64,000 nucleotides of DNA from Escherichia coli (GTDB lineage: Bacteria > Pseudomonadota > Gammaproteobacteria > Enterobacterales > Enterobacteriaceae), in assembly GCF_016026235.1 (NCBI RefSeq), contig NZ_CP065613.1. One strand, given 5' to 3'. How positions within the stretch are numbered: position 1 is the first letter of the stretch; each line of letters starts with the position of its first letter. Below, in pieces: positions 6,027-60,633 of the stretch. The translations under genes and the position numbers were made by a program. The notes beneath the pieces were generated by a model. It was not told the DNA's origin. It did no database searches and saw only the letters and a list, made by a program, of their open reading frames with translations.

Positions 6027-6113
6027 CCATCCTCCACGTACTCCCTGAACGAAACCCGCCACCCTGCTATCGGCCTGGCATCATCGCGCAGGCCGAAGTT
6101 CAGGCAATACAAA

Positions 6114-31197: not shown

Positions 31198-31863
31198 TTA
31201 ATGCAGGCAGCACTGCTTAAATTTCTTACCACTACCGCACGGGCAAGGATCGTTACGCCCCGGTTTCTCTTCTGCTTTGATCGGTTGCTGAACAGCTTTT
31301 TCCTGCGGATGCGCCATCCAGTACGCATGTAGATCAAGCGCCGCCAGTCGAATGGCATCTACGCTCTCTTCAAACGCTTCTGGCGACATTTTCTCTACCC
31401 GCTCGAAGTTTTCCTCAGTACCGTGCAGCGCAATCGCCTCCAGCGCTGGTTTTAACGAATCGGGCAACGTTGACCAGTCAGAAAGTGCCACGCCCCGCAT
31501 ATAGCCAAAGCACCACTCCTCAACAATCGTCAGCTCGCTGCCATCAACTTCTCGCAAGCCGAATAACGGCTCAAACTGCTCCGGGAATTCGTTCAGACGC
31601 TCTGCGGTATCGGCCATATGTTGAAAAGCCAGGTTCATAAAGCGCGTCATCTCTTTCTCTGACGCCCAGCGCGGCACATAGTCAGCCCCACCCCACACGG
31701 CAACCAGCCACTGTGCCGGTTCAATCTCTTGCGGAGAACTCAACACCGCCGTCAATAAACCGTCCAGCTCCGCCACATCAAGGATGGCGTGGTCAGTGTT
31801 GTATTTGGTCAGAATATCGTCCAGCCATTCCAACTCACTTTCGTTTAACGGTCCCGTTTTCAT
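31198..31863 (-). CDS. yecA: UPF0149/SEC-C-motif protein YecA (221 aa)
   Basis: Full-length match; C-terminal metal-binding SEC-C motif [20 protein letters not shown]. Confidence 0.93.
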
Positions 31864-36396: not shown

Positions 36397-36672
36397 GTGG
36401 CTTCTGTTTCTATCAGCTGTCCCTCCTGTTCAGCTACTGACGGGGTGGTGCGTAACGGCAAAAGCACCGCCGGACATCAGCGCTATCTCTGCTCTCACTG
36501 CCGTAAAACATGGCAACTGCAGTTCACTTACACCGCTTCTCAACCCGGTACGCACCAGAAAATCATTGATATGGCCATGAATGGCGTTGGATGCCGGGCA
36601 ACTGCCCGCATTATGGGCGTTGGCCTCAACACGATTTTACGTCACTTAAAAAACTCAGGCCGCAGTCGGTAA
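36397..36672 (+). CDS. insA: IS1 protein InsA
   Basis: [43 protein letters not shown]... matches InsA. Confidence 0.9.
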
Positions 36673-37094
36673 CCTCGCGCATACAGCCGGGCAGTGACGT
36701 CATCGTCTGCGCGGAAATGGACGAACAGTGGGGCTATGTCGGGGCTAAATCGCGCCAGCGCTGGCTGTTTTACGCGTATGACAGTCTCCGGAAGACGGTT
36801 GTTGCGCACGTATTCGGTGAACGCACTATGGCGACGCTGGGGCGTCTTATGAGCCTGCTGTCACCCTTTGACGTGGTGATATGGATGACGGATGGCTGGC
36901 CGCTGTATGAATCCCGCCTGAAGGGAAAGCTGCACGTAATCAGCAAGCGATATACGCAGCGAATTGAGCGGCATAACCTGAATCTGAGGCAGCACCTGGC
37001 ACGGCTGGGACGGAAGTCGCTGTCGTTCTCAAAATCGGTGGAGCTGCATGACAAAGTCATCGGGCATTATCTGAACATAAAACACTATCAATAA
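36591..37094 (+). CDS. insB: IS1 transposase InsB reading frame (expressed as InsAB by -1 frameshift)
   Basis: ORF matches InsB (...[21 protein letters not shown]...); overlaps insA in the -1 frame. Confidence 0.85.
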
Positions 37095-40000
37095 GTTGGA
37101 GTCATTACCAGTAAATCGTAATCACTACCACTAGCCAAATGTCTGATCTGGGTAGCCAAGGATACGCAATTTATCTTATCAACCAGTTGCTCGGCAAAAT
37201 TCAGCGTGTCGTTAATAGTGTCTAACGTCAGTTGATTATTTTTATACGCACCGCAAGCCAATGGGGTTAATTGTAAAAACGCCCCTAACTGTAACGAGTC
37301 ATTTTCAAGGGATATCTGAAGATCGTTTATGTTTTGCAAAATCTCGGAGGAATGAGTCATCTGCTCTAATGATATATCTGGATTGATAAACCATCCCTGC
37401 AAGGCAATGAGAGTATTCCGCACCTGTCGGTAAGATTGCATCAATACACCTTGCTCACCTAACCAAGATGCATGTTCTTCCAACAAGCTAGAAATACGCG
37501 GTAATAACTTAGCCTCGTGCTCGACCCGTTTAACCAAAGTCATTAATCTTGAGCTAATCTGCGATTTCTCGATTAAATGCACACCTTTGATAATCTCACC
37601 ATCTAGGTTAATTAATCCAGAGCCTATCGCAACTCGCTTTCCAAAACCTATCCCGTAACAAGCTCGGACCTTCTTGTACCAATCACGCAATAACATGAGT
37701 TGTTCACAGTCGGTGTCCAACCCTCGGAATGCATTACCAAGTTGATTACCAAAGTCACTTTGTTCAAACCGTTGTAACAGCTCCGAATACTTGAGCAAAT
37801 CAGCTGAGCAGCGTTTTAACTCAGCAAACTTAGTGTCAGGCTTACGAGATTGCGCCATGAGCAGTGCCTTGGCACTACGCCAATCACTCTTAAACCATGC
37901 AAATAATCCCCCTTGCTGGATAACAGCAACGGCATGCGCGAGCATCTCTTGGGAAGGCAACTGGTCCAATTGATACAAAGTAGATAGACCATCTCTTAAA
38001 GGACGCAATGTTTCGATTTGACACATTAAGTCGCGCAATACTGCATCGATATCATCATCATCAAAAAGAGGATCTCGAACTCTAATAAGCTCAGTCGGTA
38101 AAGCACCCAGAATCGACAACAACTCAGAGCAGAATAGCAATCCAGCTTGCGAATCATCGATATACGAAGCAATACCATCTGGCAAAGCATTTTTGAAATC
38201 GTTTAATTGCGCATAAATAGATGATAACTCATCATGAATTGATTGGATGGATTCAAGCCACCTGACCAAATCACGTAAAGTGAAATCCTCTGCTGCACCA
38301 TATTTTTCCAGCTCTTCACGAGGAAAGTCACACGATTGTCCTTGTTCTAAAAGTCGTAGCTTTTGAGGCTCGATAACCTGGCTCAAGGCCACATAATGAC
38401 CTTGTAGCAACTCGAACCTATCTAAATAGTGACGCACCCGTGCAATGGCATCGAGTGAATCTAGCTCACTAAGTGCTGGGAAATGCTCTGAACCACACAA
38501 CACTGGAAGATTCGACTGATCTTCTACCAATTGCTCAATATATTGAAGCGTATTAAGGCTTTCGCCTTCTAACGCCCACTTATCTACATATTCTTGATAG
38601 CTATGTTGAAAGTCGATAATTGATGTCTGCCAAGTTTGTAGCAAATCGACTATACGAGCGCTGTCAAACAATTGAATTTGTGTGTTATTCACACCGCTCC
38701 AAGGGTGCTCATATATTTCTGCATTAGCCCCCACCTGCTCACGAACCTCTTTGTAGATGCGGCTAAACTCTACTATTTGGTCACGCAGCCGTAATTGGGT
38801 CACTTTATCCAACTGCTTCCCGGAAAGGTTTTCGATATGAAGTGCTGTTGCATCAATATCTAATTTGTGACGATAACGTGTTGCACCACTCAAAATCTGA
38901 TGGATCGTTTTGCCTGTTTGCGCCCATTGGTTATTGATCAATGCGGCATATTCATTGAGCTGCTGCTTAAGATCTTCATAACGCAAAATCTGAGCATCAA
39001 TCTCTTCCATAGTAGGCATGGTCGCCTGACTCACCAAGCGAGCATTAATATCATCCAGCACCTTGCGCTTATGAGTTTTATGACTGTGCAACTCTAAGCA
39101 AAATTGACCTAGCCCCGCACGATCCAAGCGACGTTTGACGACCTCCAGTGCAGCCATCTTCTCTGCCACAAACAGGACTTTCTTACCGTTGAGCAGAGCT
39201 GCTGCAATCAAGTTGGTGATCGTTTGTGATTTGCCACTACCAGGAGGGCCCTCAATGACTAAGTTTTGACCACGGATAGCATCGATCAACGCACTGTGCT
39301 GCGAGCTATCCGCATCATCGATTAGTGGAACCTTGTCATGAATATCAGGGTAACTATCGATGCAGTACTCATGCTGACCGAAGCCACCAGGTAAGCCGGA
39401 ATTCTCTTGACCACAGCTCTGACTGGTGAAAAAGCGACGAATTACTTCATGAGACAATATATTGCGCTTGTCACAAGGCCAGCGGGCAGGATCGAGGTCA
39501 AGATACATCATCATCTTGCCAAAATTGAGCAAGCTAAGTGCACCATAACGTTTCACAGACCATTTAGGTTTGTGCTGCTCTACAACCTTCTTCACCGAAG
39601 CAAAATAAGACTCTGGAGTTTCCTCTTCATTGAACAAAGGAAGAGCGAGGCCAAAGTCAGCCTGAAGTTTTTCCTTCAAAGAGAGATTGGGCAAAATATC
39701 TTCACCCGTGTAATAAAGTTGAAACTTGTAAAGACCATCCTTCGGATCTAATTTTCCTCGTTCACATCTCACCGGAATTGTAAATAACGGTGCATAACGT
39801 GCCTTTTCAGAGGAATCGCTTTCATACCACTCAAGGAACCCTAACGCCAAATACAAGATGTTGGCGCCACTCTCCTCCAAAGCAGTTTGAGCCTTACCAT
39901 AGATGGCGCGCAAACAAGCTTCCAGTTCATTTGGATAAAGCAGAGCCTGTATCCGATTATCGTCATGAGAGGAATTGGAAGAAGATATACTAATCTCATT

Positions 40001-40774
40001 CCCAGCCTTTGCCTGTCGTTCAAAATCCTCAAGCCCTTCATAGCCTGCTAAGCAGCACGCCTCCTTCAACGCTGACAAAGCTATACCTTGATTAACGTAT
40101 TCAGAACGAATCCCTGTTAATTTTCCATTCTGGCCTTGGGCATATTGCAAGATAAACTGATGGGCTTTTTCCAGCAACTCTCTATCTGAATCAGAAACAA
40201 CCGTTTTATGGCTATCTGGTAAATCAAAATCTGTACGGATTCCTAAGACGTGCGCCCAATCCTTAGCGCTAGGATGAGCTCTTAACTGTATATCTTTACC
40301 ATCTGGCCCAACTTTGAGATAGCCATGCTCTAACAGCTGCGCTCTAGTTGGATCGGGCACAGGAGCAAATTCCATCGGGATTTCCGAGCAAAGGGTTTCA
40401 TAAAGCTGTTCTGGTAATTCATCAACAATACGTAGTGAAGACCCTTTTTGAGTGATAGGGAAATTCAAAAGTCGATTTCGAGACGTAAGGTCCAATAACT
40501 TCTTACGCATAGCCTCGAGGGAAGTCAGAATAAAATCTGAGCCTCCTTGATTGAGTTCCTCTGCTGTAGAGGTATCTACAGTCGACATAATGTTCTCCAT
40601 TTCTTAGGGTCCACAAGTAAAACGTTTTATGCTGATGCATCACAAAAAGACCGCAGTAAACTGCTGCAAAGAAGAGGAGATTTTTAGTCTCCCCTTCTTT
40701 ATCAATCAGATCATACAATCAACTTAACGCCCATTAGTTGATAGCAGCCAAATTTCATAAACAGATTCAATCCG

Positions 40775-42817
40775 TTATTGCTGAATTTGATTGGATAGTA
40801 AGACCTGCAACATATCTTGTTGATGCTCAGCTATCTCATCTTCCAGCCAACGACCTTTATCTTTCATCAGCCGAATCATAGCAAGCAATTTAAGACTATC
40901 AGTCTGGTTATTGGCAAGGCTTGCTTCAAAGTGCTCCTGCTTCTGTTGCGGCTGGAAGTTACTCAAGCGCGAGTTCTTGCTGTGGCTGATAAGGCAAAGG
41001 TTGCCAAACGAATGGAGTGCACTCTGCTCAACCGGTTTATAGCCATCCATCGGATGCTGGGGTGAGAAGTGCTCCACCGAGCTGCGGAAAGTGAACTCAA
41101 AGGAGCCAGCAACTTTGTCGCTATTCCGATCTCGTACCCACAGCAGATAGTCGAGGAAGTTGAAGACAAAGTTGTTCTCGATATGACCGAAGCGAAGTTT
41201 GGATGTAATCACCTTGTGCCAACTCTCATCCACATTGATGGCGGGCAACAGGGCGTTATCAAGGTAGAGCATCTGGTAATAGGAAGCCCCTTCACCAGGC
41301 GCCAAAAAGCGCTGGAAGACAAAGCGGCGAGCCTGACTCTCCAGATAGGACAGATAAGCCCCGGCATCCACCGGTTGATCAGGGTGACAATTGTCGAACA
41401 GATATCTCAGTGCACCATTCAGCCAATGTTTGTAAACCAGGGTCGGGGTCGACACATGAAACGCCGACAGCAACATCAGGACCCGCCGGTTAACACCAGA
41501 GAAACCATTCTCATTTTCATCCTTGTCAAAGGTATTGATGTAACTGACGCTCTTTTCCGAATACCAGTGCAGCCGCTTCAGACTCCAACTATCCTTGCCA
41601 TCGGCAAACTCGCGCTTGATGATGAACTGATCAAACAGATACTTGCTCTTTAACAGGCCATAGATAAAACGCTGAACTGCCGCTACTGGATCCGGTTGCC
41701 TTATCACTCGCAGCTCAAACTGATCGACCAGTTGTTTATCATCAAGCGGCACCCCCTCCGTATCACCCGGGTCGCGGCTCACGAGTCGCAGCACATGGAG
41801 CAAGAAGTTGGAGAAGTTGATGACGCTGTTAAAGCGCTCGGAGCCTGCGCTCTCCTCCTCCACCGTCTGCTCACCATCAAGCTTGTCATCCTGCAAAATG
41901 GCCAACAAGGTGCGCCCTTGGCTACCGGCAGCTGCACGGCTTTTATCGGCAGCGTCGGCCGTGTTTGGGGATCCTAGCAGTTCAAGCAGATGGGCAAAAT
42001 CACGGGGCACAAACTGACCCCAGTCGCTCTCACCAAACAGACGGTGGCGCTCTTGCGGGGTAAAGCCGTACTGGATATAGCGCTCCATATTGGCGCAGGC
42101 ATCCCATACCCGAGTCAGGATATGAATACTTTGGCGACGATGCTCTTCCTCGGGTATCTGGTTCAGCGTCTCCATCAGCCGCGCCTTGATCACTTCATGC
42201 TTTTCCAACTGCTCGCCGCGATTGTTCATCGCCTCGAAGAAGTGATTGAGATCGGTATCCTTGGGTACTTCGATACGAGAGATCTGCACATGCTTGAAGA
42301 GGTAGTCGCAAAAGGCCGTCAGTTTAGCCCCTACCAAACCAAGATCCGCCATTGCCTTGCCAATCAGCTCAAAACCGTTCACCAAACCTTCATTGAAGGT
42401 ACTCCCCCGCAAATCGTAGGGGGCAACACCCTGCCATAAGCGCTCGAAGGTATGGCTCGATATCGGGCGACTCTCAAAAGCGAGGTTGATGGTCTGATAC
42501 CAGCTCATATCCACCGAATCTATCGCGTGATGTTTGAGCCAATTGGCCAGCAGAGAGAGGGTAGTAAAGCGCTGCTGGCCATCGATTACCTCGAAACTGC
42601 CATCGTCCCGGGCAAACACCACCAGGGTGCCGATATAGTAGGTTTGCGGCCCCTTACCACTGACCAATTTTTGCTGATAATCCAGCACATCCTGCAGCAG
42701 CTGGGTGATCTCTCCCTCACCCCAGGCATAGTTGCGCTGGTACATGGGCACCAGATAGCGGGCGCGATCTTCAAGCAGTGCACGAATGGAAAAGGGGCGA
42801 ACGCCTGCATCATTCAT
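40775..42817 (-). CDS. DUF262 + DUF1524 (HNH-like) protein, GmrSD-family type IV restriction-like (680 aa)
   Basis: N-terminal DUF262 motifs ([26 protein letters not shown]) and C-terminal HNH-type block ([19 protein letters not shown]). GC-rich compared with the AT-rich island cargo. Confidence 0.75.
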
Positions 42818-44264
42818 AATATTTCATCTCCCGAAACAGCCCGACCAGCTCATCTTCGGCACCATTGCGATTGTTCTTGTTCTCTCGACTGCTCATGCTA
42901 GGCAAAGGGAAGCCGTGCAGATCTCCCGGCAGACGAGCATCACGAATGGCACGGATCAGATTGTGCTCCAGCACATAGTTATCCATGGTTGCCAACTGCA
43001 CTACCTGCTGGCGGATGCGGCAGCGATAGGCCCAGATAAAGCACTTCTCGATGGCCAGTGACAGCCCTTGGCTGCCGAACTTGTCGATATAGAAGATCAG
43101 TGCGCAGTCGAACATGGCCCGCACATAACGATCCCCGGTGCGGTGGCGACGCTCGTAGCTGCCCAGGGTCGATAGCACCTTGCTGGCCATCGGTGTCAGC
43201 GTTTCGCCGAGCAGGGTGGCAGATTGCGCCTTGCCGGAATCAGACTCCTCGGCCACGATGGCGGCCACCCGCGTCTGGTAGTACTCGGCCATCTCGAAAA
43301 AGCGCCGACCATTGATGATCATCTGGTCGAGATGAAAGGGAAACGTCATGTACTGGCCGTCAATCTTGCGCTGGTACTGGCGGTTGTACTCATCGACAAA
43401 GTGGTGGGCGATGCGCAGCGACTCCACGTAAGGATAATGCCCTACCCGATCTAGGTTGACCCCCTTGAAGAGATCCACCTCCCCCTTGCCAAAGTAGCGG
43501 GCCGACTTGCCCTCGGCCCACTGGCGTACCCGATAGAGATAGAGGGCGAACAGATTGGCCAGCTCGTCGCTTGGCAGGCGCTCCCAATGGGCGACCGCCT
43601 CGGCCTTGAGATTGGCCTCATGACCGGCAAACTCGCGCAGGTGAAATGCCTTGAGCAGATCGTGAGGAGCCAGATCGCGCCCCCGGGCATTTTGCGAATC
43701 GAAGAACTGGAACGCCTCCGAGATATCCTGCAGTACAAAGCAGACCACCTGACAGCGGTTGAGCAGAAAGTCAATTTGCTGCTCGTCAAACTCAGGGCGG
43801 GCCACCAGCCGACGCAACTCCAGATAGTTGCGTCTGAGGTTGAACTCCGAATCCCGGCTGGGGAAGCGCTGGCGCTGCATAAACGCATCGATAGGTCCAC
43901 GCAAGACCTGCAATTGCTCACGCAGATCCTGACGTTGAAACCGGATACTCTTCTCTTTGCCACTGCGATTTTCGTTATCCAGCACCTCGATCAGCGCCTT
44001 GACGGTCAACATCAGGGTCAGGGTGCGTTGCTGACCATCGACGATATCAAGCATCTCGCCCTGCTCACTATCGGTGTGCTGATGAAACACCACCGAGCCC
44101 AGCCGGTAGGCGCTCTTGTCCTGATGGGTTGCCAAATCGGTAAAGAGATCCGAGATATTCTTGGAGCCCCAGCGGTAAGGTCGCTGATAGCTTGGGATGG
44201 CCAGTTGGGGAATGGCCAGCAACTGGCGTACCGACTGCACTTGATTATTAATGCTCTCCATCAT
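42810..44264 (-). CDS. DUF262 (ParB-like nuclease/NTPase domain) protein (484 aa), partner of the downstream DUF262-DUF1524 gene
   Basis: Motifs [17 protein letters not shown] and [12 protein letters not shown]; 3' end overlaps the downstream gene start by 8 nt. Confidence 0.7.
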
Positions 44265-44918: not shown

Positions 44919-45674
44919 CTACATATCTGCCAACAACATCCCAGCCATACCATCCAGTCGCTTCTTAACCTTTTCCCAGCCCGGCATAACCTGCCCCATC
45001 AGACGGTAAAACTCCTCGCTGTGGTTGTGCTCAGCCACATGGCATAACTCATGTAGCAAAACATAATCGATACATTCTGAGGATGCCTTAACCAGCCATG
45101 GATTCAGGGTCAGACAGCCTTTTGCTGAACAGTTGCCCCATTGCGTTTGCATCGCCCGCAGACGTATCGGAGGACGCTCACTGACCCAAAGGGTCTGCGG
45201 AATCAGTAAATCAAGCCTGCGCTGAAAAACATCTCTGGCACGTTCCCGATACCATTCAGCCAGCAAGGCTTTAATCTTTTCTGCCGATTTGTGTCTGACA
45301 GTCACTTCCAGACGCCCACGCAACATTTTCACTCGTTGCGGCACAGTAGCGTCTTCTGTCACTTTCAACTGATATTGCTTACCGAGATAATAATGGCTTT
45401 CTCCGCTGACATACTGACGCGGAACAATGTGTATCTGTTGCTCCCTGAAATCACGCAGTTGCTGGTATATCCAGCGCCCACGTTTTTTCAGCGCAGACAA
45501 TACCTCGTGCTCCGGTGTTTCAGGCGGTACAGAGGCCACAACCCGGCAGTCCGGATAAACCTTAATGAGCACCCTGCCCTTTACGACCTGACGCGGAACA
45601 CACTGTACGACGATGACCTCATCACCATAGACAATGCGTAACGCTTTCATTGATGGCGATTCTTTTTCACTCAT
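44919..45674 (-). CDS. M48-family zinc metallopeptidase (YgjP/DUF45-like), type I R-M associated (251 aa)
   Basis: HExxH motif LLHELCHVAEHNHSEEF; start overlaps the hsdR stop; this family is commonly encoded next to type I hsd genes. Confidence 0.75.
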   Translation of the reverse strand: MSEKESPSMKALRIVYGDEVIVVQCVPRQVVKGRVLIKVYPDCRVVASVPPETPEHEVLSALKKRGRWIYQQLRDFREQQIHIVPRQYVSGESHYYLGKQYQLKVTEDATVPQRVKMLRGRLEVTVRHKSAEKIKALLAEWYRERARDVFQRRLDLLIPQTLWVSERPPIRLRAMQTQWGNCSAKGCLTLNPWLVKASSECIDYVLLHELCHVAEHNHSEEFYRLMGQVMPGWEKVKKRLDGMAGMLLADM

Positions 45675-48600
45675 GATTTCATCAAACCAACGCGCAGTAT
45701 CTGGATGATGGTTTCAACAATACGGTTAACCTGATTCATTCCGGCACCAATTTCCCGGCAGGCCGTAAACAGCAGTGGTAGCAGACTTGTCTTAACGACT
45801 TTCTCAATGTCCTGGGGGTTCAGGGAGTTTTCTGCCACCGCTTTGACGATAATGTTGTCCACTTCAAAAGCCAGCTTCGTCCACTTATCCTGCACCTGAA
45901 CGTCGTTTACCGCAAAAACCTCAGGTAGCTCTTTTTTAAATACACCGTAATACGCCTGAGCATGCTTGTTTACCGCCAGTGCATCCGGGATATCGCTGAG
46001 CTTACGGGCTTCAACCTGTTCTTCAAATTCACGGAACAAAAGGTACTGTTTCAGCGGATGGTCAAACAGTTTTTCAGCCTCTTCGATAGCCATACGCAGG
46101 AGTTTTGAAAATGCCTCCTGAGCATACGGGTCATCACGCAATTCCTGCTCAATCATCTTTGTCACACGGGTTTTAATGATGTCGGTTTCATTGCGGGTTT
46201 TATTGTTGTCCCACTCTTCGGGCTTTTCGCTCTTGCCCATTTTACCGACTTCATACACGCCATCCGGTTCACGAACTTCAACGCCGGTGACATGCTTATC
46301 CAGCAGTTTTTTCACCTGCTCAGCGTAGTCGTCATAATTGACCTGCTCTCCACTTACCTGCATCGCCCACTGGCGCAGGCTGGACATCTGTTTTACGGTT
46401 TCTTTATAGAGATTTCGGTCTTGTTCCGTAAAGCTCTTGTCGGTGAAGAAGGTAGCGGACTGCAGTGCCACTTTCAGGCATCCGGCAAAGGCCGTTAACG
46501 CCTCGAAGAAATCATCACGGGTTTTCTGATGGATATCGACCATCTCTCCGTCACGTTCTTCCATTTTAGGCACCAGTACCGCACGTAACTGCTCAGTATC
46601 ATTTTTGTTTTTAACACCGGCAAATATGGCCCACAGCTGGTTATACAGATGCGGCAGGCGCTTGTATTCAGAGCTCATGGCGCTGTACAGCCCGTCAATA
46701 TCTTTGATATCGTATCCGCCCTGAGTTCGGGAGGCGAGGTCCTGATATTTGCCGATAGTCGTGTCCAGCTCAGCCAGAATACCGCGATAATCAATCAGCA
46801 GACCGAACTTTTTTAGTGGATGCAGTCGGTTCACCCGCGCAATCGCCTGGATAAGGTTGTGGGACTTAAGCGGCTTGTCGATATACAGCACGGTATTCTT
46901 CGGCTCATCAAACCCGGTGAGCAGTTTATCAACGACTATCAGCAATTTGAGCTTCTCATCGGTATCGAAACGACTGATGACATTACGGGTATACACAGAC
47001 TCATCCTGCGTGCCGACATTATCCTTCCACCATTTCGTCACTTCCGGCAGTTTGCTTTCATCCACTTCGGTATTCCCTTCCCGGGTATCCGGCGGGCTGA
47101 TAACTACAGCTGACTCAAACAACCCGGCTTCATCAAGATACTTTTTATATTTGATGGCGGAAATCTTGCTGTCGCAGGCAAGCTGGCCTTTCAGTCCCTC
47201 ATCAATATTCTTCGAGAAGTGCGTGGCGATATCGAGTGCGATCAGACGGATGCGATCATCTGCACTATAAACCTCACCTTTACGGGCATATTTACGCTTC
47301 AGGTCGGCTTTTTGCGCTTCGCTTAACCCATCGGTAATACGATCAAACCAGGCATCTATTGCCCGATCGTTAACCTCAAGGTCGGGAATACGTTCTTCAT
47401 ACAGCAAAGGTGTAACGGCTTTATCTTCTACCGCTCGCTGCATGGTATAAGCGTGGACAATCGGCCCGAATTTATTAGTGGTCTTATCTTCTTTCAGCAA
47501 CGGCGTACCGGTAAATGCCACAAAGGCGGCGTTCGGCAGTGCCAGTTTCATTCGCACATGGTTCTCACCCCCCTGGCTCCGGTGTCCTTCATCAATCAGT
47601 ACGATGATGTCGGGGCTGGTATTGACGCATTCAGGAAGTTTTGTCGCTGAATTAAATTTCTGGATAAGGGTGAAGATAATGCGTTCTTTACCAGAGCCAA
47701 TCTGCTGTGCCAGTTTCTGGCCAGAGGTCGCCATTGCTTTGGCCTTATCATCCTTTCCGGCCAGTTCGCCACCAGAAGCGAAAGTGCCGCTGAGCTGCCC
47801 TTCAAGATCGACACGGTCCGTCACCACCACAATGCGACACTGCTTCAGGCTGTCATGAAGAATCAGCGCCTTACTGAGGAACACCATGGTGTACGATTTA
47901 CCGGAGCCCGTGGTATGCCAGATCACACCACCTTCTCTGCCCCCGTCCGGTCTGCGGGTGCTTATGCGTTCCAGCAGCCTTTTAATCCCGAACACCTGCT
48001 GATAGCGGGCGACAATTTTCCCGGTCTTTTTATCAAACAGGGTGAAAAAGCGGGTCATCTCCAGCAGACGTTCCGGTGAAAGCAGGCTGATGAGCAGCTT
48101 ATCCTGCCCGCTGACGGCCAGTTCACCGGCGGCGATTAACTGTTGGTACCAGTCGAGATCGGCTGAAGGACGATGATCAAACAACGCATGAATTTGTTCA
48201 GTCGATAACTTATGGTTGCGCAGCGCATACATCTGCGCGTAAGTAATATCTTCTTCGCGCCATGCCGCCCAGAATTTCATTGGTGTATGACAGGTACCGT
48301 AGCGCCCGTCATGCCCGTTAATCGACAGTAATATCTGGCTGTAAGCAAACAGCTGCGGGATTTCGTCGTTGAGCTGATTGCGGATACTCTGGGATATCCC
48401 TTCGTCAATGGTTGGCCCTTTCTTGCCGTGACCCGCCGGGCTTTTCGCTTCAATGACGGCCAGCGGGATACCATTCACAAAACACACAATATCCGGTCTG
48501 CGGGTTTCGACACCGCCTGACCGCAATACCGTAAATTCTTCGGTAAAATGGAACTGGTTATTTTCCGGATGTTCCCAGTCGATCAGCGCAATGGTGGGGT

Positions 48601-48958
48601 TCACCTTCTTGCCATCGACAAACTCCGTGACGGCGATACCGTAGAGCAGATGGTTATACATCCGTTCATTGGCTTTGAGCAGCCCTTCATTGAGCGCCGG
48701 AGAACAGACCTGTGATATCAGGTTATCCAGTGCTTTTTCCGATAACTGGCAGGTTTTGCCACCCGCCATAAAGGAACGCTTCGACAGCTCTTCACGCAGA
48801 ACCGGACGCAGCACCACCTCATCCTGTTTATAGCCCCGGTAATCCATAATCTGTTTCGGAGATAAAAACGTCCAGCCGAGGCTGGTCAGTAACGTCAGTG
48901 CCGGAATTTTGGCGCTGTATTCTTCCTGGAATTTTGGCGTGTACGTCTGGTTCATCAT
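45671..48958 (-). CDS. hsdR: Type I restriction enzyme R subunit HsdR (1,095 aa)
   Basis: Size and motor-domain motifs (TGSGKS Walker A, DEGHRSQ DEAD-box-like motif II) typical of HsdR. Confidence 0.9.
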   Translation of the reverse strand: MMNQTYTPKFQEEYSAKIPALTLLTSLGWTFLSPKQIMDYRGYKQDEVVLRPVLREELSKRSFMAGGKTCQLSEKALDNLISQVCSPALNEGLLKANERMYNHLLYGIAVTEFVDGKKVNPTIALIDWEHPENNQFHFTEEFTVLRSGGVETRRPDIVCFVNGIPLAVIEAKSPAGHGKKGPTIDEGISQSIRNQLNDEIPQLFAYSQILLSINGHDGRYGTCHTPMKFWAAWREEDITYAQMYALRNHKLSTEQIHALFDHRPSADLDWYQQLIAAGELAVSGQDKLLISLLSPERLLEMTRFFTLFDKKTGKIVARYQQVFGIKRLLERISTRRPDGGREGGVIWHTTGSGKSYTMVFLSKALILHDSLKQCRIVVVTDRVDLEGQLSGTFASGGELAGKDDKAKAMATSGQKLAQQIGSGKERIIFTLIQKFNSATKLPECVNTSPDIIVLIDEGHRSQGGENHVRMKLALPNAAFVAFTGTPLLKEDKTTNKFGPIVHAYTMQRAVEDKAVTPLLYEERIPDLEVNDRAIDAWFDRITDGLSEAQKADLKRKYARKGEVYSADDRIRLIALDIATHFSKNIDEGLKGQLACDSKISAIKYKKYLDEAGLFESAVVISPPDTREGNTEVDESKLPEVTKWWKDNVGTQDESVYTRNVISRFDTDEKLKLLIVVDKLLTGFDEPKNTVLYIDKPLKSHNLIQAIARVNRLHPLKKFGLLIDYRGILAELDTTIGKYQDLASRTQGGYDIKDIDGLYSAMSSEYKRLPHLYNQLWAIFAGVKNKNDTEQLRAVLVPKMEERDGEMVDIHQKTRDDFFEALTAFAGCLKVALQSATFFTDKSFTEQDRNLYKETVKQMSSLRQWAMQVSGEQVNYDDYAEQVKKLLDKHVTGVEVREPDGVYEVGKMGKSEKPEEWDNNKTRNETDIIKTRVTKMIEQELRDDPYAQEAFSKLLRMAIEEAEKLFDHPLKQYLLFREFEEQVEARKLSDIPDALAVNKHAQAYYGVFKKELPEVFAVNDVQVQDKWTKLAFEVDNIIVKAVAENSLNPQDIEKVVKTSLLPLLFTACREIGAGMNQVNRIVETIIQILRVGLMKS

Positions 48959-49007
48959 TAATCCTTTTCTTTCTGGCGCTACTCGCTACTGGTCACATGA
49001 AGATTCA

Positions 49008-49691
49008 TCAATGCAGACAGCACTTCTTAAATTTTTTACCGCTGCCACACGGACACGGGTCATTTCGCCCGGGCATGTTTTCTGCCCCCTTCACTGGAAC
49101 AGGCCGGGATGATGCCTCTGACATTCTCACCGACAACCAGTGCTGGTAAAGCGCCAGTGCCGCAGGCTGAATGAGAGTAATACTCTGTTCAAATTGAACA
49201 GGTGACATTTTCTCAACCACTGGGAAGTTCTTTTCGATACCATGAAGGGCTATCGCCTCCAGCGAGGGACGTAAGGCCTCTGGCAAGGCTGACCAGTCAT
49301 CCAGAGACCGGCCTTTCATATACCCGAAACACCACTCTTCGACGATTGTATATGTCTTCCCCTTCACCTCACGTCCATTGAAAATCGGTTCAAACTGTTC
49401 AGGGGCCTCATACAGGCAGCCAGCGATATCGTTCATATGCTGAAAACACAGCCCCACAAAACGCGTCATCTCTTTTTCAGTGGTCCAGTGAGGGTAGTAG
49501 TCACCTCGCCCCCAGATAGCACTAAGCCAGGTATTAGGGGGGATCATATTCGGGCCAGAGACAATCGCTGTCAGAAAGCCATCCAGCTCAGAGAAACAGA
49601 GCACAGAGTCATCATTGCCGTATTTCAGCAACACCTCTTCCAGCCAGTCGATTTCCCGGTCAATCAGCGGCCCGCTTTTCGTCAGTTTCAT
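49008..49691 (-). CDS. YecA-family (UPF0149) SEC-C-motif protein paralog embedded in the type I R-M operon (227 aa)
   Basis: Aligns along its length with chromosomal YecA (31198..31863), including the C-terminal [20 protein letters not shown]; start ATG overlaps the hsdS stop (ATGA). Confidence 0.85.
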
Positions 49692-50914
49692 TCGGCAACC
49701 GCCTCATCGACCTTAACACGACGTTTGCCAGTCAATAGCTGTTGCATCAGGGCTTTTTTCTCATCTCTCAGGCAGGCGAGTTTTTTCTCCAGCGTGGAGA
49801 TTTCGGTGTCAGCAGCGGACAGCACGGCGGCGATTTTTTGTTGCTCTTTAATAAATGGGCAAGAAAAGCTTAAAGTTTCAAAATCTTTCTTGGAAAGTTC
49901 TAAAAATGTTGAGCCAGATGATTTTTTGATCATCTCATTTGTGTTCATTTGCAACAAATAATAAATAAATTCGATATTAAACCCTTCATTCGGAATGATG
50001 TTTTTAAAACCTTGATTGGTACAAATTTCCGATGTCGAAATTGCTAAAGCACCAATGGTAGCTCTTGTACATACCATCAAACTACCTTTTGGCAAAAGAA
50101 CAGCTGAGCTATTTAGTAATCCCGCAGGAGTAATTTTTCTACTAGTATTGCTAACGAACCTACCCGTTAATGCAGTAACATCAGTTGGGGTAAGCCATAG
50201 AATATCGCCTTCCCAATACATGGCCATGTTTGTATCAGGTGTTCCACCGGATACAACTTTGCCCATTTGTATTAGTTTAGTAATTTTCCACTCCCCACTA
50301 AACCTCACCCCATTCTCATCCAACAACCGTTTATTCCCGGTAAGCAATTGCTGCATCAGGGCTTTTTTCTGCTGTTGACTGTTGGCGAGAAGGCTTTCCG
50401 TCACCGAAATTGCCTTATCCCAGGCGGTCAGAATTTGAGATATTTTATCTTGTTCACAAATAGCAGGAGTTTTTATGTTTAACGCTCTAATATCAGAAAG
50501 GTTAATTCTAGAAAAGGTAGAACCACCTGCACTTTTTGCTATCTGTCGCTGGACTAAATCTGATTGTAATGTGTAGTAAATAAACCGCCAATCTGCATGG
50601 ATTGCTTTAATTAAGACAGTGTCTTGCCCTAATACAAATGGCTTTTTGGAATCCACATAGCTAACAACACCGACAGACTGGTTACGACTCATAACCAAAT
50701 CACCTTGTTCAACAACACAGTGATCCATCAGAGAGCGATATTCTTCTTCTGTAACTCTTTTTACAGGTGAAATCAGATCTAAGGCTCCCCATTTTATCGT
50801 CCCCGGTGAGACAAGTGGTATTCCCGATTTAACGTACTCAGGAGTCCTGTGTTTGCAATCGATTATCGACGCAACCGATGAGAGTTTCTGAGATGACCAC
50901 CCCTTAGGAATCAT
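49688..50914 (-). CDS. hsdS: Type I restriction-modification specificity subunit HsdS (408 aa)
   Basis: Two variable target-recognition domains separated and followed by the conserved repeat [11 protein letters not shown]; start overlaps the hsdM stop. Confidence 0.88.
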
Positions 50915-52427
50915 AACCCAACTCCTTCAGATACCCCGCCATCTCCGTTTCCAGCTTCGCCAGTTCCGCCTTCAGTTGCTCGCGTTCGGCGCGTACGGCC
51001 AGCAAATCAATCTCGTCTTCTTCTTCAAAGGTATCGACATAGCGCGGAATATTGAGGTTGTAATCGTTGTCCTGAATTTCCTTCAGGCTGGCAAGATAGG
51101 CGTATTTCTCGACGTTATCGCCATCACGGTAGGTCTTGACGATTTTCTTAATGTTTTCTTCGCTAAGCTGGTTCTGGTTTTTACCTGCCTTGAATTCACG
51201 GCTGGCATCGATAAACAGCACCTTGTCATCAACTTTCTGCTTTTTGAAAATCAGAATCGCAGCCGGAATCCCCGTACCGTAGAACAGTTTTTCCGGCAGA
51301 CCAATTACCGCATCCAGCAAATTTTCGTCGATCAGTTTCTGGCGAATTTTACCTTCGCTGGAGCCACGGAAAAGCACACCGTGTGGCACAACTACGCCCA
51401 TACGGCCAGTTCCCGGTTTCAGGGTTTCGATCATATGCGAGATAAAAGCGTAATCTCCTTTAGTCTTCGGCGGTACACCGCGACGAAAACGGCCAAACTT
51501 ATCGTTCTCGGCCTCGTCATGGCCCCACTTATCGAGGCTGAACGGTGGGTTAGCGGTCACGATATCAAACAGCATCAGGTCGCCATTTTTATCGAGCAGC
51601 TTCGGGTTGCGAATGGTATCGCCCCACTCGATTTTATGGTTGTCTTCCCCGTGCAGGAACATATTCATTTTCGCCAGCGACCACGTAGAACCGATCGCTT
51701 CCTGACCGAACAATGCATAGTTACGACTATCATGCCCGGAGACAATTTTACGCCCACACTTCATCAATAATGAACCGGAACCACAGGCTGGATCGCAGAT
51801 GGTATCACCCGGTTGCGGATCGAGCAGTTCTGCAATCAGGTCCGAAACTTCCGGCGGGGTATAGAACTCCCCGGCTTTCTGCCCACCGCTGGCGGCAAAG
51901 TTTTTGATCAGGTATTCGTAAGCATTGCCGATAACGTCCAGCGTACCGACACGACTCGGCTTCAGGTTGAGATCTTCACCGGCGAAGTCTTCCAGTAGCT
52001 GACGAAGGATGGTGTTTTTCTGTTTTTCTTCGCCAAGACGATCGGTGTTAAACGAAATATCCTGGAACACGCTTTTCCCGGCATCTTTCAGTTTGGTTCC
52101 GTTGGCTTCTTCGATTGCATGCAGAGCCTGATCGATACGCTCACCGTTACCCGGCTCATGGCGGCGTTCGTACAGCGCATAAAAGCTGGCACTTTTTGGC
52201 AGTACAAAACGCTCGTTGGCCATCATCGCTTCAATCAGTTCCGGCACATCGCCATACTGTTCTTTGTATTCGTCATAGTGATCCTGCCAGACATCTGAAA
52301 TGTACTTGAGGAACAGCATGGTAAGGATAAAGTCTTTATAGGTATCAGCACTGATGGTGCCACGGAACGTATCACACGCGGCCCACAGGGCTTTGTTGAT
52401 CGTGTCCTGACTGATTTTGTCGTTCAT
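50904..52427 (-). CDS. hsdM: Type I restriction-modification N6-adenine DNA methyltransferase subunit HsdM (507 aa)
   Basis: AdoMet-binding and catalytic motifs (DPACGSGSLL, NPPF). Confidence 0.9.
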   Translation of the reverse strand: MNDKISQDTINKALWAACDTFRGTISADTYKDFILTMLFLKYISDVWQDHYDEYKEQYGDVPELIEAMMANERFVLPKSASFYALYERRHEPGNGERIDQALHAIEEANGTKLKDAGKSVFQDISFNTDRLGEEKQKNTILRQLLEDFAGEDLNLKPSRVGTLDVIGNAYEYLIKNFAASGGQKAGEFYTPPEVSDLIAELLDPQPGDTICDPACGSGSLLMKCGRKIVSGHDSRNYALFGQEAIGSTWSLAKMNMFLHGEDNHKIEWGDTIRNPKLLDKNGDLMLFDIVTANPPFSLDKWGHDEAENDKFGRFRRGVPPKTKGDYAFISHMIETLKPGTGRMGVVVPHGVLFRGSSEGKIRQKLIDENLLDAVIGLPEKLFYGTGIPAAILIFKKQKVDDKVLFIDASREFKAGKNQNQLSEENIKKIVKTYRDGDNVEKYAYLASLKEIQDNDYNLNIPRYVDTFEEEDEIDLLAVRAEREQLKAELAKLETEMAGYLKELGYDS

Positions 52428-55642: not shown

Positions 55643-56779
55643 ATGCCTATTCTGGATCTGCGTTTCAGCAACAAATCAATTCACCAACTTCCACATCCCC
55701 TCACGGGTTGTCAGGAATACCGTGATATTCACTGCCAAAACCTGCGTGCTCTGGTGTATCCCAATCGGATCACGCTGGCCTTTCGTGCCACTATAAACAA
55801 TCAGCGTATATATGAAACCCTGGGTCAGTTCCCTCAGCTCTGCGTTGAGGATGCCCGTCAGCATGTGATGAAACTGCTTGCTGATAAAAATCGTCTTGCG
55901 GTTCAGTCCCGTCGATTCACTGTGGAACAGGCCATCAATGACCTGTGGCTACCGGATTTGCAGTTGTATAAAAAGAGTCCTCAGTCAGAGTTGTCAAAAC
56001 TCAACCTCTACGTTCGCCCGTTCTGGGGCAAGCGGCAACTTCGCGACATCACGGCAGGAGAACTAGAACAATATGCTGCTGGCTTACGGGAAAAATTACG
56101 TCCGTCAACAGTAAACCGTATCCTCGCAATATTGTCCAAAATATGCTCTCTGGCAGTACGTGCTGGATGGATCACACATTCCCCGATGTCACATGTCCGC
56201 TATCTGAAAGAAAATAACATTCGCTATCGCACACTGTCAGCGACAGAAATCCCGCGCTTTATTGACGCGGCAACAGCGCTGCAAACACCGGCAGCTGATT
56301 CTATATTGCTTGCTCTTTATACGGGGATGCGTATTGGTGAGGTATGTACCCTGAAATGGGAGTACTGGCACCCGGATATGCATCAACTCATACTGCCTGA
56401 TACAAAGTCCGGACACCCTTTCACCTGCCCACTTGCACCTCCAGCCATTGCAGTTGTCCAGTGCCAGCAGGACCTGATGCTCAGCAAAACTTACATTTTT
56501 CCACAACTAACCGACAATGCCCGCCCTCTGGCATATCCGCGTGCAACCTTTGCCCGTATTTGCCGGGATGCCGACATTGATAACCTGCGGATGCATGACC
56601 TGCGCCGTACCTTTGCCACCCGGGTACTACAGGCGACCGGGGATATTGCAATCGCTTCCCATCTGCTAAATCACCATTCACTCACGGCGACCCGTCGCTA
56701 CGCTTTTCACAATGCAGCGACATCACACGCAGTGGTTTCTCAGGTCATAGAAAGTTATGACACAAAAATGAACCTATGA
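55643..56779 (+). CDS. int: Tyrosine recombinase / phage-type integrase (378 aa)
   Basis: C-terminal catalytic motifs (MRIGEVCTLKW, HDLRRTFATRVL, LNHHSLTATRRYAFH) and an N-terminal arm-type region (FSNKSIHQLP). Confidence 0.85.
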   Translation: MPILDLRFSNKSIHQLPHPLTGCQEYRDIHCQNLRALVYPNRITLAFRATINNQRIYETLGQFPQLCVEDARQHVMKLLADKNRLAVQSRRFTVEQAINDLWLPDLQLYKKSPQSELSKLNLYVRPFWGKRQLRDITAGELEQYAAGLREKLRPSTVNRILAILSKICSLAVRAGWITHSPMSHVRYLKENNIRYRTLSATEIPRFIDAATALQTPAADSILLALYTGMRIGEVCTLKWEYWHPDMHQLILPDTKSGHPFTCPLAPPAIAVVQCQQDLMLSKTYIFPQLTDNARPLAYPRATFARICRDADIDNLRMHDLRRTFATRVLQATGDIAIASHLLNHHSLTATRRYAFHNAATSHAVVSQVIESYDTKMNL

Positions 56780-56921: not shown

Positions 56922-57050
56922 ATGTATTTAACCATTAAGCAGTTCGCAGAAAGATTTAATCTTTCTGCATCCACGGTTGCGTCAGATATATCGCGCAACC
57001 CCGGAAAACTCCCGCCCTTCATCAGAATTGGGCGGGCTATACGATTCTCT
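56922..57050 (+). pseudogene. AlpA-family helix-turn-helix regulator/excisionase-like gene truncated by IS1
   Basis: MYLTIKQFAERFNLSASTVASDISRNPGKLPPFIRIGRAIRF resembles AlpA-type HTH proteins; the reading frame runs into the IS1 terminal repeat at 57051. Confidence 0.6.
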
Positions 57051-57818
57051 GGTAATGACTCCAACTTACTGATAGTGTTTTATGTTCAGATAATGCCCGA
57101 TGACCTTGTCATGCAGCTCCACCGATTTTGAGAACGACAGTGACTTCCGTCCCAGCCTTGCCAGATGTTGTCTCAGATTCAGATTATGTCGCTCAATGCG
57201 CTGAGTGTAACGCTTGCTGATAACGTGCAGCTTTCCCTTCAGGCGTGATTCATACAGCGGCCAGCCATCCGTCATCCATACCACGACCTCAAAGGCCGAC
57301 AGCAGGCTCAGAAGACGCTCCAGTGTGGCCAGAGTGCGTTCACCGAAGACGTGCGCCACAACCGTCCTCCGTATCCTGTCATACGCGTAAAACAGCCAGC
57401 GCTGACGTGATTTAGCACCGACGTAGCCCCACTGTTCGTCCATTTCAGCGCAGACAATCACATCACTGCCCGGTTGTATGCGCGAGGTTACCGACTGCGG
57501 CCTGAGTTTTTTAAGTGACGTAAAACCGTGTTGAGGCCAACGCCCATAATGCGTGCACTGGCGCGACATCCGACGCCATTCATGGCCATATCAATGATTT
57601 TCTGGTGCGTACCGGGCTGAGAGGCGGTGTAAGTGAACTGTAGTTGCCATGTTTTACGGCAATGAGAGCAGAGATAGCGCTGATGTCCGGCAGTGCTTTT
57701 GCCGTTACGCACCACGCCTTCAGTAGCGGAGCAGGAAGGACATCTGATGGAAATGGAAGCCACGCAAGCACCTTAAAATCACCATCATACACTAAATCAG
57801 TAAGTTGGCAGCATTACC
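57051..57818 (-). mobile_element. IS1 (768 bp), divergent isoform, no target site duplication
   Basis: Terminal repeats GGTAATGACTCCAACTTA (57051..) and GGTAATGCTGCCAACTTACTG (reverse complement at 57818); insA 57488..57763 and insB 57066..57569 differ at several residues from the IS1 copy at 36342. Flanking 9-mers differ (CGATTCTCT vs CATCTTCAA). Confidence 0.9.
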
Positions 57819-58286: not shown

Positions 58287-59516
58287 TCACATCTGCTTCG
58301 TAGCCGCAGTATTCAGAAGCAGGTCAGTCACTCCCTGCCCTGTCTGACGCATACGTTCCGGTGTTAATTTCGCGTAACGTTCTGTACTCTGAATACTGGC
58401 ATGCGCCAGTTGGGCTTTAACGTCATACAGGCTGAATTGACCACTCGAAACCAGTAAAGAGGCAACAGAATGACGTGTGGTGTGAAAACAGACTTCATTC
58501 TTGTCTATACCGCACTGTGCCAGTATTTTTTCATATGCCCATCGGGGTTCCGATATCGGTTTTCCATTATCCTTAATGGCGAACAGATACGGATTACTGC
58601 CAACTCGTGGGATAGCATCAATAATCGATAATGCGGCATCGCTTAGATATACCGTCCGACTGCGACCATTTTTTGTATAAGGAATGAACAGAGTACGATT
58701 GGCCCGGTCGATATGTTCATGCCTGACATTAAGCATTTCTGATTTGCGTGTACCGGTTAACAACAACATGGCTATCAATCCCCCGGCAGCTTTGTTGGGA
58801 TATTGGGTAGCAGCGTCAAGAATGCGCCTGATCTCATCAGCATCAAAAAAGCGCGTCCGCTGATTATTCTCTTTCAGTAAAGGGATCTTATCGGCTTCAT
58901 TCTTTTCCAGCACATCCTGTCGCAACGCATAACGCCCCATCGTTTTCAGAATAGCAAGGGCTCTGTTACAGGTAGACGGCGCATATTGCTGCCCGTGAAT
59001 ACGCCCCTCCAGCATGTCAAACAGCACCTGTTGTATCTCTCTGGCCCTGAGATCGCAGTAACGTATCTTTCCCAGACGAGGTTCAATGTATTGCGTGAAA
59101 CGCTGAACATCCTTATCCCAGGACTTTTTATGGCGTTTGATGAACGGAACATAGGTCTGGTGAAAAAACTCACTAAGTGTTGGCATCGCACGATAATTAT
59201 CGCGTTCTGCTTTAGGGTCATTTCCCAGTGCAATCGCCTCCTTATGACGGCGAGCTATCTGGCGAGCTGTCCCCACATCAATTTCAGGGAATCTGCCAAT
59301 ACTGATACTTTTTTTGGTACCGTGGAATGTGTAGCGCAGGAGGAAACGTTTGTTACCCGTTCGACCTGAGAGACATTTGAGGCCAATAACTTCGGTATCA
59401 GATACCTCAAGCTCTGTAGATCTGGTATCTGTGTTTGCCGGAAGGGCTTTGATGGATGAATTGGTGAATCGGAAGGATTTTTGCATATTTATCCTCATGT
59501 ATCTGATTGATATCAT
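58287..59516 (-). CDS. int: Tyrosine recombinase / P4-type integrase (about 400 aa; start may be a downstream Met)
   Basis: Arm-type N-terminus (FRFTNSSIKALP), catalytic motifs (LLLTGTRKSEMLNVRHEHI, HTTRHSVASLL, STERYAKL); located close to the tRNA-Leu end of the island. Confidence 0.85.
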   Translation of the reverse strand: MISIRYMRINMQKSFRFTNSSIKALPANTDTRSTELEVSDTEVIGLKCLSGRTGNKRFLLRYTFHGTKKSISIGRFPEIDVGTARQIARRHKEAIALGNDPKAERDNYRAMPTLSEFFHQTYVPFIKRHKKSWDKDVQRFTQYIEPRLGKIRYCDLRAREIQQVLFDMLEGRIHGQQYAPSTCNRALAILKTMGRYALRQDVLEKNEADKIPLLKENNQRTRFFDADEIRRILDAATQYPNKAAGGLIAMLLLTGTRKSEMLNVRHEHIDRANRTLFIPYTKNGRSRTVYLSDAALSIIDAIPRVGSNPYLFAIKDNGKPISEPRWAYEKILAQCGIDKNEVCFHTTRHSVASLLVSSGQFSLYDVKAQLAHASIQSTERYAKLTPERMRQTGQGVTDLLLNTAATKQM

Positions 59517-60481: not shown

Positions 60482-60601
60482 AAAAAAACCACCCGGAGGT
60501 GGTTTCACGACACTGCTTATTGCTTTGATTATTCTTGTCTTTCCCATGGTACCCGGAGCGGGACTTGAACCCGCACAGCGCGAACGCCGAGGGATTTTAA
60601 A
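60482..60601. repeat. Right direct repeat of the island (leuZ 3' part plus downstream terminator hairpin)
   Basis: About 95% identical to 32003..32114. Confidence 0.85.
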
Positions 60602-60633
60602 TCCCTTGTGTCTACCGATTCCACCATCCGGGC
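60547..60633 (-). tRNA. leuZ: tRNA-Leu (anticodon UAA)
   Basis: Reverse complement reads GCCCGGATGGTGGAATCGGTAGACACAAGGGATTTAAAATCCCTCGGCGTTCGCGCTGTGCGGGTTCAAGTCCCGCTCCGGGTACCA. Confidence 0.95.

Follow-up and report, generated by a model that had tools for sequence, protein, structure and literature searches.

Does a chaperone-like gene that sits inside a type I restriction-modification (R-M) operon work for that operon, or does it only travel with it? This question is raised by a 7.5 kb segment of Escherichia coli DNA (positions 44919-52427) within the window, i.e., the whole stretch of 64,000 nucleotides analyzed here. An earlier description made from the letters alone (hereafter the sequence-only reading) had placed a gene of the YecA family between hsdS and hsdR. 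The list of open reading frames (ORFs) together with family scans confirmed five co-oriented minus-strand ORFs in the order hsdM, hsdS, yecA-like, hsdR, and an M48/YgjP-like peptidase gene, exactly as that reading had it. The stop/start overlaps it had reported were likewise read from the sequence, namely 11 nucleotides at hsdM/hsdS (ATGATTCCTAA) and a 4-nucleotide ATGA at both hsdS/yecA-like and hsdR/M48. As set out below, the yecA-like gene is intact, selected, and translationally coupled to hsdS; a majority of the operon copies have it and some lack it, and its product is non-catalytic.

The distribution of the gene was determined in 5426 complete E. coli genomes, in which the island-type yecA-like gene was counted at a nucleotide identity of at least 80%; core yecA, the chromosomal copy, matches the island-type query at 64-67% and stays below this threshold. 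The yecA-like gene was present in 417 genomes (~8%) and the backbone hsdR in 540, and in 49 genomes hsdS was joined directly to hsdR by 21 nucleotides. The gene was also found on ~347 plasmid records (at least 80% protein identity), each time annotated beside a 'restriction endonuclease subunit S', and the backbone HsdR on ~375 plasmids (at least 90% identity). The plasmids with yecA-like were mostly large conjugative plasmids of Klebsiella, with some of Serratia, Salmonella, and E. coli. Retention of the gene reached ~89% of the E. coli operons with an intact junction and ~93% of the plasmid copies. Absence from related hsd loci, which the sequence-only reading had considered as a way in which it could fail, is therefore not what these counts of genomes and plasmids show.

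The position of the gene is conserved in those operons that carry it. Alleles down to 72-76% identity hold the same position in Klebsiella aerogenes and on metagenomic contigs, and the island-type clade was found only beside hsdS, with the exception of one metagenomic locus. The window and six related full operons (L001, L008, L009, L018, L019, and L020) share the ATGA overlap of hsdS and yecA-like, and the decayed locus of Providencia (L005-L007) has a 1-nucleotide overlap instead. Two operons without the gene (L012/L013, strains 19KM1766N, CP151005, and EC187792) encode HsdR proteins 98.5-99.2% identical and HsdM proteins ~98% identical to those of the window. In both strains the hsdS stop is followed after 21 nucleotides by the hsdR start, with no trace of yecA-like at the junction, and the island context of the operon is similar, with integrase or DUF262 neighbors.

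Remote relatives share the layout hsdM-hsdS-[slot]-hsdR-M48 and differ in slot content only. The slot is empty in Acetobacter, and it holds PDC-M07A/B in Photobacterium pAQU1, a NucS-like PDC-S02 gene plus AbiD in Acinetobacter, and yecA-like followed by a GmrSD gene in the decayed operon of Providencia. The spacer position between yecA-like and hsdR hosts further cargo as well, which is a gene for a 594-amino-acid protein in L001, L020, and L008 and the GmrSD gene in L005. Considering the 49 yecA-less genomes and the other or missing cargo of remote relatives, 'optional embedded cargo' is a fitter term than 'operon component', and the supposition that the gene had become fixed within the operon does not hold. 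The hsdS-hsdR slot of this mobile family of type I R-M operons holds yecA-like as an accessory gene that some copies lack.

This slot is a cargo site of the 'genetic embedding' kind, and it is the position that PrrC holds in EcoprrI. The prr locus of EcoprrI has the order hsdM-hsdS-prrC-hsdR. In both loci hsdM comes first and an accessory gene lies between hsd genes, and the yecA-like gene shows the marks of an embedded accessory gene, namely same-strand nesting between hsd genes, variable presence in near-identical operons, and a shared slot. The locus that hosts PrrC is of type IC, and its R-M activity does not depend on PrrC (PMC12707154). PrrC is an ABC-ATPase-like anticodon nuclease, whereas the yecA-like product has no nuclease or ATPase domain, and EcoprrI is of type IC, whereas the host operon of yecA-like is not type IC by sequence. 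The TgvAB genes on VPI-2 of Vibrio cholerae are nested in a type I R-M operon and have proven anti-phage activity (PMC11411939). TgvAB, RloF, PDC-M07, and PDC-S02/AbiD are all like yecA-like in being cargo nested, in the same orientation, within type I R-M operons. However, TgvAB and other such cargo have an evident effector, being genes for nucleases, ATPases, or Abi proteins, and yecA-like encodes a small helical binding protein with a zinc/iron knuckle.

The yecA-like gene derives from the enterobacterial housekeeping chaperone gene ascA/yecA. Its product matched Pfam UPF0149 (PF03695, E 5e-30, residues 15-185), TIGR02292 (133 bits), NCBIfam PRK10396 (YecA; 349 bits, cut-off 149), and, at the C-terminus, SEC-C (PF02810, E 4e-10). 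The SEC-C region matches the structures of the SecA and YchJ metal-binding domains, and the SecA-like metal-binding domain, with its CxC...C(C/H) ligand set, is conserved in the island and core clades. The embedded protein of 227 amino acids and the core YecA of the same window are 58% identical (129/223, E 2e-100) and their genes lie 17.1 kb apart, which bears out the earlier view of a diverged paralog. Orthology with core yecA, which is marked by tyrP/ftnA synteny and one copy per genome, does not apply to this second copy inside an hsd operon. Across both clades 71 positions are invariant, including the whole metal-binding motif, and just two positions are clade-diagnostic.

AscA/YecA and the embedded protein thus have in common the two-domain architecture, all metal ligands, and the predicted fold. 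They differ in that AscA/YecA is encoded on the chromosome beside tyrP, whereas the paralog is encoded in an hsd operon on mobile elements, is less acidic (net charge -6 vs -21, isoelectric point (pI) 5.4 vs 4.55), and is a recombining mosaic. AscA, as E. coli YecA has been renamed, binds SecB and ribosomes via its metal-binding domain and acts as a holdase that prevents protein aggregation (bioRxiv 10.1101/2020.07.21.215244); for the embedded protein, binding to SecB and ribosomes is a prediction.

The AlphaFold2 (AF2) model of the embedded protein (pLDDT 90, pTM 0.80) was compared with the Protein Data Bank (PDB) using Foldseek, which returned the UPF0149 structures 4gyt and 1izm (TM-score 0.67 and 0.62, normalized to the target) and no other fold. 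A hidden enzymatic or anti-restriction fold was rejected on this ground, and the family scans and Foldseek together revealed no catalytic, nuclease, ATPase, or known anti-restriction domain. A PrrC-type anticodon nuclease was rejected since UPF0149 and SEC-C were the only domains found, and identity as a DNA mimic of the Ocr or ArdA type was rejected since the protein is less acidic than core YecA and has no such fold match. The UPF0149 protein YgfB of Pseudomonas aeruginosa and Haemophilus influenzae shares the fold (1izm) and works by binding a partner protein, AlpA (PMC9998450), offering a precedent for sequestering action. It differs in having no SEC-C, in being ~18% identical to the yecA-like product, and in being encoded by a chromosomal housekeeping gene. 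A fusion of the yecA-like product with 620-amino-acid 'cold-shock' proteins, suggested by a protein cluster, was also rejected, as BLASTP found no similarity and the clustering was an artefact.

The phage collection contained no phage-encoded homologues of yecA-like. The 'phage' matches at 55-58% identity were core yecA at the ends of prophage records, and the others were short segments, mostly of the metal-binding domain. Several deposited 'phage' records (ON470596, NC_049344, and others) start with core yecA, and they are probably prophage predictions at the leuZ tRNA hotspot with flanking host DNA.

The pairwise ratio of nonsynonymous to synonymous substitution rates (dN/dS) of yecA-like was 0.05-0.2 across alleles 76-96% identical, indicating that the gene is functional. 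The gene is intact and under purifying selection, and a pseudogene or relic was rejected considering that it is intact in hundreds of records at these dN/dS values; the pseudogene features that the sequence-only reading had allowed for were not found. Decayed copies do exist, as L021 is fragmentary and the Providencia operon (L005-L007) is broken by insertion sequence (IS) elements. The gene also diverges faster than its neighbors. For the same locus pairs, dN was 0.05-0.16 for yecA-like vs 0.008-0.027 for hsdM/hsdR, a 5-20 times difference, and dS was often higher too. For example, HsdM and HsdR of L009 are each 98.4% identical to those of the window and the YecA-like protein is 76% identical. 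Sliding windows against L009, L018, and L019 revealed an intragenic mosaic, in which approximately codons 20-76 and 134-171 have 63-70% nucleotide identity and the gene elsewhere has 93-100%. The conserved backbone includes the 3' end of yecA-like, which encodes the metal-binding domain, the spacer, and hsdR, and the 49-nucleotide spacer is identical in L018 and L009 despite the diverged yecA-like coding sequence.

The embedding, which the sequence-only reading had called unexplained, turned out to be on record. The gene is annotated by the Prokaryotic Genome Annotation Pipeline (PGAP) as 'YecA family protein', and its product matches the PADLOC-DB v2 candidate PDC-S12 (PDLC04917) over its full length with 324 bits. 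The embedding is thus already catalogued computationally by PGAP and PADLOC, and accessory cargo in type I R-M operons is a known phenomenon. The PDC models represent genes embedded in BREX, DISARM, or type I R-M, gathered in a guilt-by-embedding screen, and are phage-defence candidates only (Payne et al. 2024, bioRxiv 10.1101/2024.01.29.577857). The text of this preprint mentions neither YecA nor PDC-S12, and the provenance of PDC-S12 rests on the model name and the preprint's methods. In addition, the PDC-S12 model gives core YecA 366 bits, more than the embedded paralog on which it was presumably built, so the label carries little information and does not separate the clades. 'Type 1 RM, PDC-S12' are named together as frequent cargo in a study of pipolins, and the higher score of core YecA probably explains why PDC-S12 was counted as a 'frequent' system. 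Most of what genome surveys call PDC-S12 is probably housekeeping yecA, at least in E. coli, and across the majority of enterobacterial genomes the model is likely to pick up the ordinary gene. The literature search found no paper connecting the UPF0149/SEC-C/YecA family with hsd genes, in agreement with the earlier statement that no R-M role is known for the family, and no report of anti-phage activity for yecA-like/PDC-S12. The family is an odd fit for a defence gene.

With regard to the host operon, the genes for HsdM, HsdS (with two target-recognition domains), and HsdR are all intact and co-oriented according to the family scans, and we class it as a predicted type I R-M system. The match of its HsdR with that of EcoR124I is remote and confined to residues 297-517, the motor domain (E 3.5e-32), and no EcoR124_C domain was among the Pfam matches of the HsdR orthologues; membership in type IC (EcoR124I/EcoprrI) was rejected for these two reasons. 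Consensus scans for an internal promoter or terminator between hsdM-hsdS-yecA and hsdR-M48 gave scores no better than those of shuffled sequence. The GC content of hsdS was 40.8% vs ~50% in the neighboring genes, and the GC content of yecA-like, overall and at third codon positions (GC3), matched that of the neighboring hsd genes and E. coli. A copy of the segment with 100% identity lies in the finished E. coli chromosome NZ_CP065615 (strain FDAARGOS_943), which excludes mis-assembly of the operon. A duplicate of core yecA, which the sequence-only reading had raised as a possible assembly error, was rejected on the same ground and on the identity of just 58%.

The gene downstream of hsdR is also a feature of the operon family. 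Orthologues of this 251-amino-acid protein match Pfam YgjP-like (PF01863) and are annotated by PGAP as M48 or SprT in related loci, and the protein has a weak match to the proabylysin structure 4jiu. The gene also lies 3' of hsdR in the Acinetobacter, Photobacterium, and Acetobacter relatives (L015, L016, and L017). Throughout the operon family, from gamma- to alpha-proteobacteria, it either has stop/start coupling to hsdR or lies close to it. The M48 peptidase is a more constant 'fourth subunit' than the product of the yecA-like gene, and it might degrade HsdR.

What the embedded protein does for the operon can be proposed from its descent and position. Our leading account, tentative and held at somewhat below even, is that an optional cargo gene derived from AscA/YecA acts as a ribosome-tethered holdase or adaptor on R-M subunits; the mechanistic part is one that we infer. 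The intact SecA-type metal-binding domain would dock on ribosomes and SecB as in the parent AscA/YecA, and the UPF0149 domain would hold client proteins. The likeliest clients would be the R-M subunits themselves, since the protein is made from the same mRNA right after HsdS and right before HsdR. It would then be a non-essential factor of co-translational assembly or quality control, which may, for example, maintain the solubility of HsdS, or slow or meter the joining of HsdR to the M2S core, and surplus HsdR would possibly be passed to the operon's own M48 peptidase. As a result, an operon moving on plasmids and islands could establish in new hosts without self-restriction.

Several observations weigh against this account. 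HsdM and HsdR are almost invariant while the YecA-like protein diverges 5-20 times more and as an internal mosaic, which points to a variable or external partner, or to relaxed constraint, more than to a tight interface with conserved subunits. Any contribution it makes is dispensable, as operons without the gene persist in 49 genomes. The conserved position may reflect inheritance rather than repeated selection, since the embedding appears to be of single origin. Furthermore, binding of the protein to Hsd subunits or to the M48 peptidase is a matter of inference.

The origin of the gene bears on these points. Identity to the embedded clade was 53-59% for all sampled core YecA proteins of Enterobacterales. 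The nearest relative that is not embedded (P0017/P0121, 67-73% identical) is encoded on a metagenomic enterobacterial contig (ERZ24828809 k141_3939, L023) with the order glyW-cysT-leuZ, IS, ABM, yecA-like, a 141-amino-acid gene, transporter, core yecA, ftn, yecR, yecJ, and flhDC, and without hsd genes. At positions 653-6649 of this contig, the syntenic core yecA encodes 191 amino acids and has no SEC-C, and the full-length island-type copy lies 2 kb upstream on the leuZ side. The sequence-only reading had suggested a relic of a yecA-adjacent integration. The relic part fails, given that the gene is intact, widespread, and under purifying selection, and the yecA-adjacent part is plausible in view of this relative in the leuZ-yecA hotspot. 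Capture next to core yecA is a plausible origin; just as well, the L023 copy could be what is left of an island. The embedding seems to be a single event in the history of one operon lineage, and no independent embedding of the YecA family in other R-M lineages was seen among plasmids.

The 594-aa neighbor was considered as a possible partner. It has a weak N-terminal cold-shock domain and Cys-rich, zinc-ribbon-like motifs at the C-terminus, and no PADLOC or NCBIfam family covers it. It was found on 132 plasmids, with all copies ~90% identical and only directly 3' of yecA-like, as well as in many E. coli genomes, and it had no other plasmid homologues. It is an uncatalogued embedded candidate and possibly a partner of the YecA-like protein. 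Approximately 17 of 60 evenly sampled E. coli records carried both genes, and yecA-like without the 594-aa gene occurred in ~22 of these 60 records and in 215 of the ~347 plasmids. The intergenic sequences are unrelated between the architectures with and without the 594-aa gene, indicating that the form in the window is not a simple recent deletion.

The foremost alternative to the holdase account, somewhat unlikely in our estimate, is that of an embedded module for defence or guard duty, built on the same logic as PrrC, with the YecA-like protein as a putative monitor or protector of the R-M complex. One possibility is a decoy or shield that binds phage anti-restriction proteins; another is release upon R-M inhibition, after which the protein would bind ribosomes or SecB and stall the infected cell. 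The position is that of PrrC in the type IC locus (PMC12707154), anti-phage activity is established for other cargo of type I R-M systems (TgvAB, PMC11411939), recognised defence cargo fills the slot in relatives, and fast mosaic evolution beside conserved flanks is expected of a host-phage interface, although the overall dN/dS lies well below 1. The PADLOC listing also points to defence, but PDC-S12 is a candidate that goes unmentioned in the preprint text, and its model favors core YecA (366 vs 324 bits). Moreover, the protein lacks an effector or enzymatic domain, its fold is unlike that of any known toxin or anti-restriction protein, and, being just mildly acidic (net charge -6), it is no DNA mimic like Ocr or ArdA.

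A hitchhiking second AscA-type chaperone, captured from chromosomal DNA beside the leuZ site, which would bring the host or the element a general proteostasis benefit, have no R-M role, and be kept by linkage, seems improbable. The location of the closest non-embedded relative between leuZ and core yecA on a contig without hsd genes, the integration of the island itself between these two genes, the GC and GC3 values that match the neighbors and E. coli, and the structural completeness of the operon without yecA-like in 19KM1766N and EC187792 are all consistent with it. Yet the location of the gene is internal to the operon and not at the island edge, its ATGA coupling to hsdS is conserved, and it is retained in ~89% and ~93% of E. 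coli and plasmid operons, respectively, when neutral passengers in compact defence operons are usually lost and core yecA is already present in every host. It is distinctly improbable that yecA-like is the first gene of a two-gene cassette with the 594-aa gene, a partner that the window copy would have lost or never gained. The strict adjacency of the ~90% identical copies on 132 plasmids without other plasmid homologues, the ~17 of 60 records with both genes, and the persistence of the pair across yecA-like alleles just 76% identical (L008) would suit a cassette. Against this, yecA-like alone is commoner and still under purifying selection, a different gene (GmrSD) follows it in Providencia, and the unrelated intergenic sequences argue against a simple recent deletion in the window.

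Genes nested in type I R-M operons have repeatedly proved to have immune functions themselves, as PrrC and TgvAB did. The yecA-like gene is unusual among them in having no effector domain, in descending from a housekeeping chaperone, and in being present in ~8% of complete E. coli genomes and on several hundred Klebsiella plasmids. Recruitment of a ribosome- and SecB-binding chaperone into anti-phage immunity, either as an assembly or timing factor or as a fast-evolving guard against anti-restriction proteins, is on present evidence unlikely, but it would tie restriction-modification to the machinery of translation and secretion. If the protein tunes R-M assembly or establishment, it would add a new, operon-encoded control of restriction to ClpXP-dependent restriction alleviation; a role as guard against anti-restriction proteins would make it a new kind of counter-counter-defence.

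The operon is located in a composite island of ~28 kb with core yecA and leuZ as boundaries (Table 1). The 'tRNA-Leu between pgsA and yecA' is described in the pipolin paper as an E. coli integration hotspot and the pipolin attachment site. From core yecA toward leuZ, the island contains an IS110 element, hhe split by IS1, two DUF262/GmrSD-like genes, an IS1 fragment, and the hsd operon, followed by two hypothetical genes, a tyrosine integrase, an AlpA-like remnant cut by IS1, and a second integrase. Given the two integrases and the AlpA/excisionase-like ORF truncated by IS1, the island at leuZ is composite and probably immobilised.

Table 1. Coordinates of the operon, of the surrounding island in the window, and of the 594-aa gene in related loci
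Feature	Position	Strand	Description
hsdM	50904-52427	-	type I methyltransferase subunit, 507 aa; TIGR00497 284 bits (cut-off 243); PADLOC MTase_I 444 bits
hsdS	49688-50914	-	specificity subunit, 408 aa, two target-recognition domains; PADLOC Specificity_I PDLC03118 712 bits, residues 1-407
yecA-like	49008-49691	-	227 aa; UPF0149 helical domain and C-terminal SecA-like SEC-C metal-binding domain
spacer yecA-like/hsdR	48959-49007	-	49 nt; carries the hsdR Shine-Dalgarno sequence AAGGA
hsdR	45671-48958	-	restriction/translocase subunit, 1095 aa; TIGR00348 463 bits (cut-off 285); PADLOC REase_I PDLC03041 1365 bits
M48/SprT/YgjP-like zinc metallopeptidase	44919-45674	-	251 aa; PGAP names; Pfam YgjP-like in orthologues
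core yecA/ascA	31198-31863	-	221 aa; PRK10396 437 bits; PGAP 'UPF0149 family protein YecA'; adjoins tyrP, yecH, ftnA
IS110-family element	32577-33773		adjoins core yecA
tyrosine integrase	55643-56779
tyrosine integrase	58287-59516
AlpA/excisionase-like ORF	56922-57131		truncated by IS1 copy 57066-57763
leuZ tRNA-Leu(UAA)	60547-60633	-	attachment site, island boundary; ARAGORN
594-aa gene, L001	9707-11491		inserted between yecA-like and hsdR
594-aa gene, L020	7107-8888	-	inserted between yecA-like and hsdR
594-aa gene, L008	3801-5585		inserted between yecA-like and hsdR

The anti-phage gene hhe (DUF4011 helicase, 34076-40600) is split by IS1 (transposase ORF 36591-37094) into parts of 1170 and 759 aa, and it is intact in strain FDAARGOS_943. 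At 40775-44264, two DUF262/GmrSD-like genes (484 and 680 aa, 8-nucleotide overlap) match the PADLOC models HEC-06, Orf5, and SspE N-terminal. As a two-gene layout this pair resembles the TgvAB type IV restriction pair, and it also flanks the operon in L013 and L014.

More distant members of the YecA family (25-33% identical) were found on Xanthomonas and Pseudomonas plasmids (L002 6001-6699, L003 5974-6687, and L004 5995-6708). These genes lie directly 3' of Tn3-family transposase genes, which are themselves preceded by a toxin-antitoxin pair, and in Variovorax a distant YecA-family gene adjoins an IS66 element. This suggests that the YecA family is recurrent transposon cargo.

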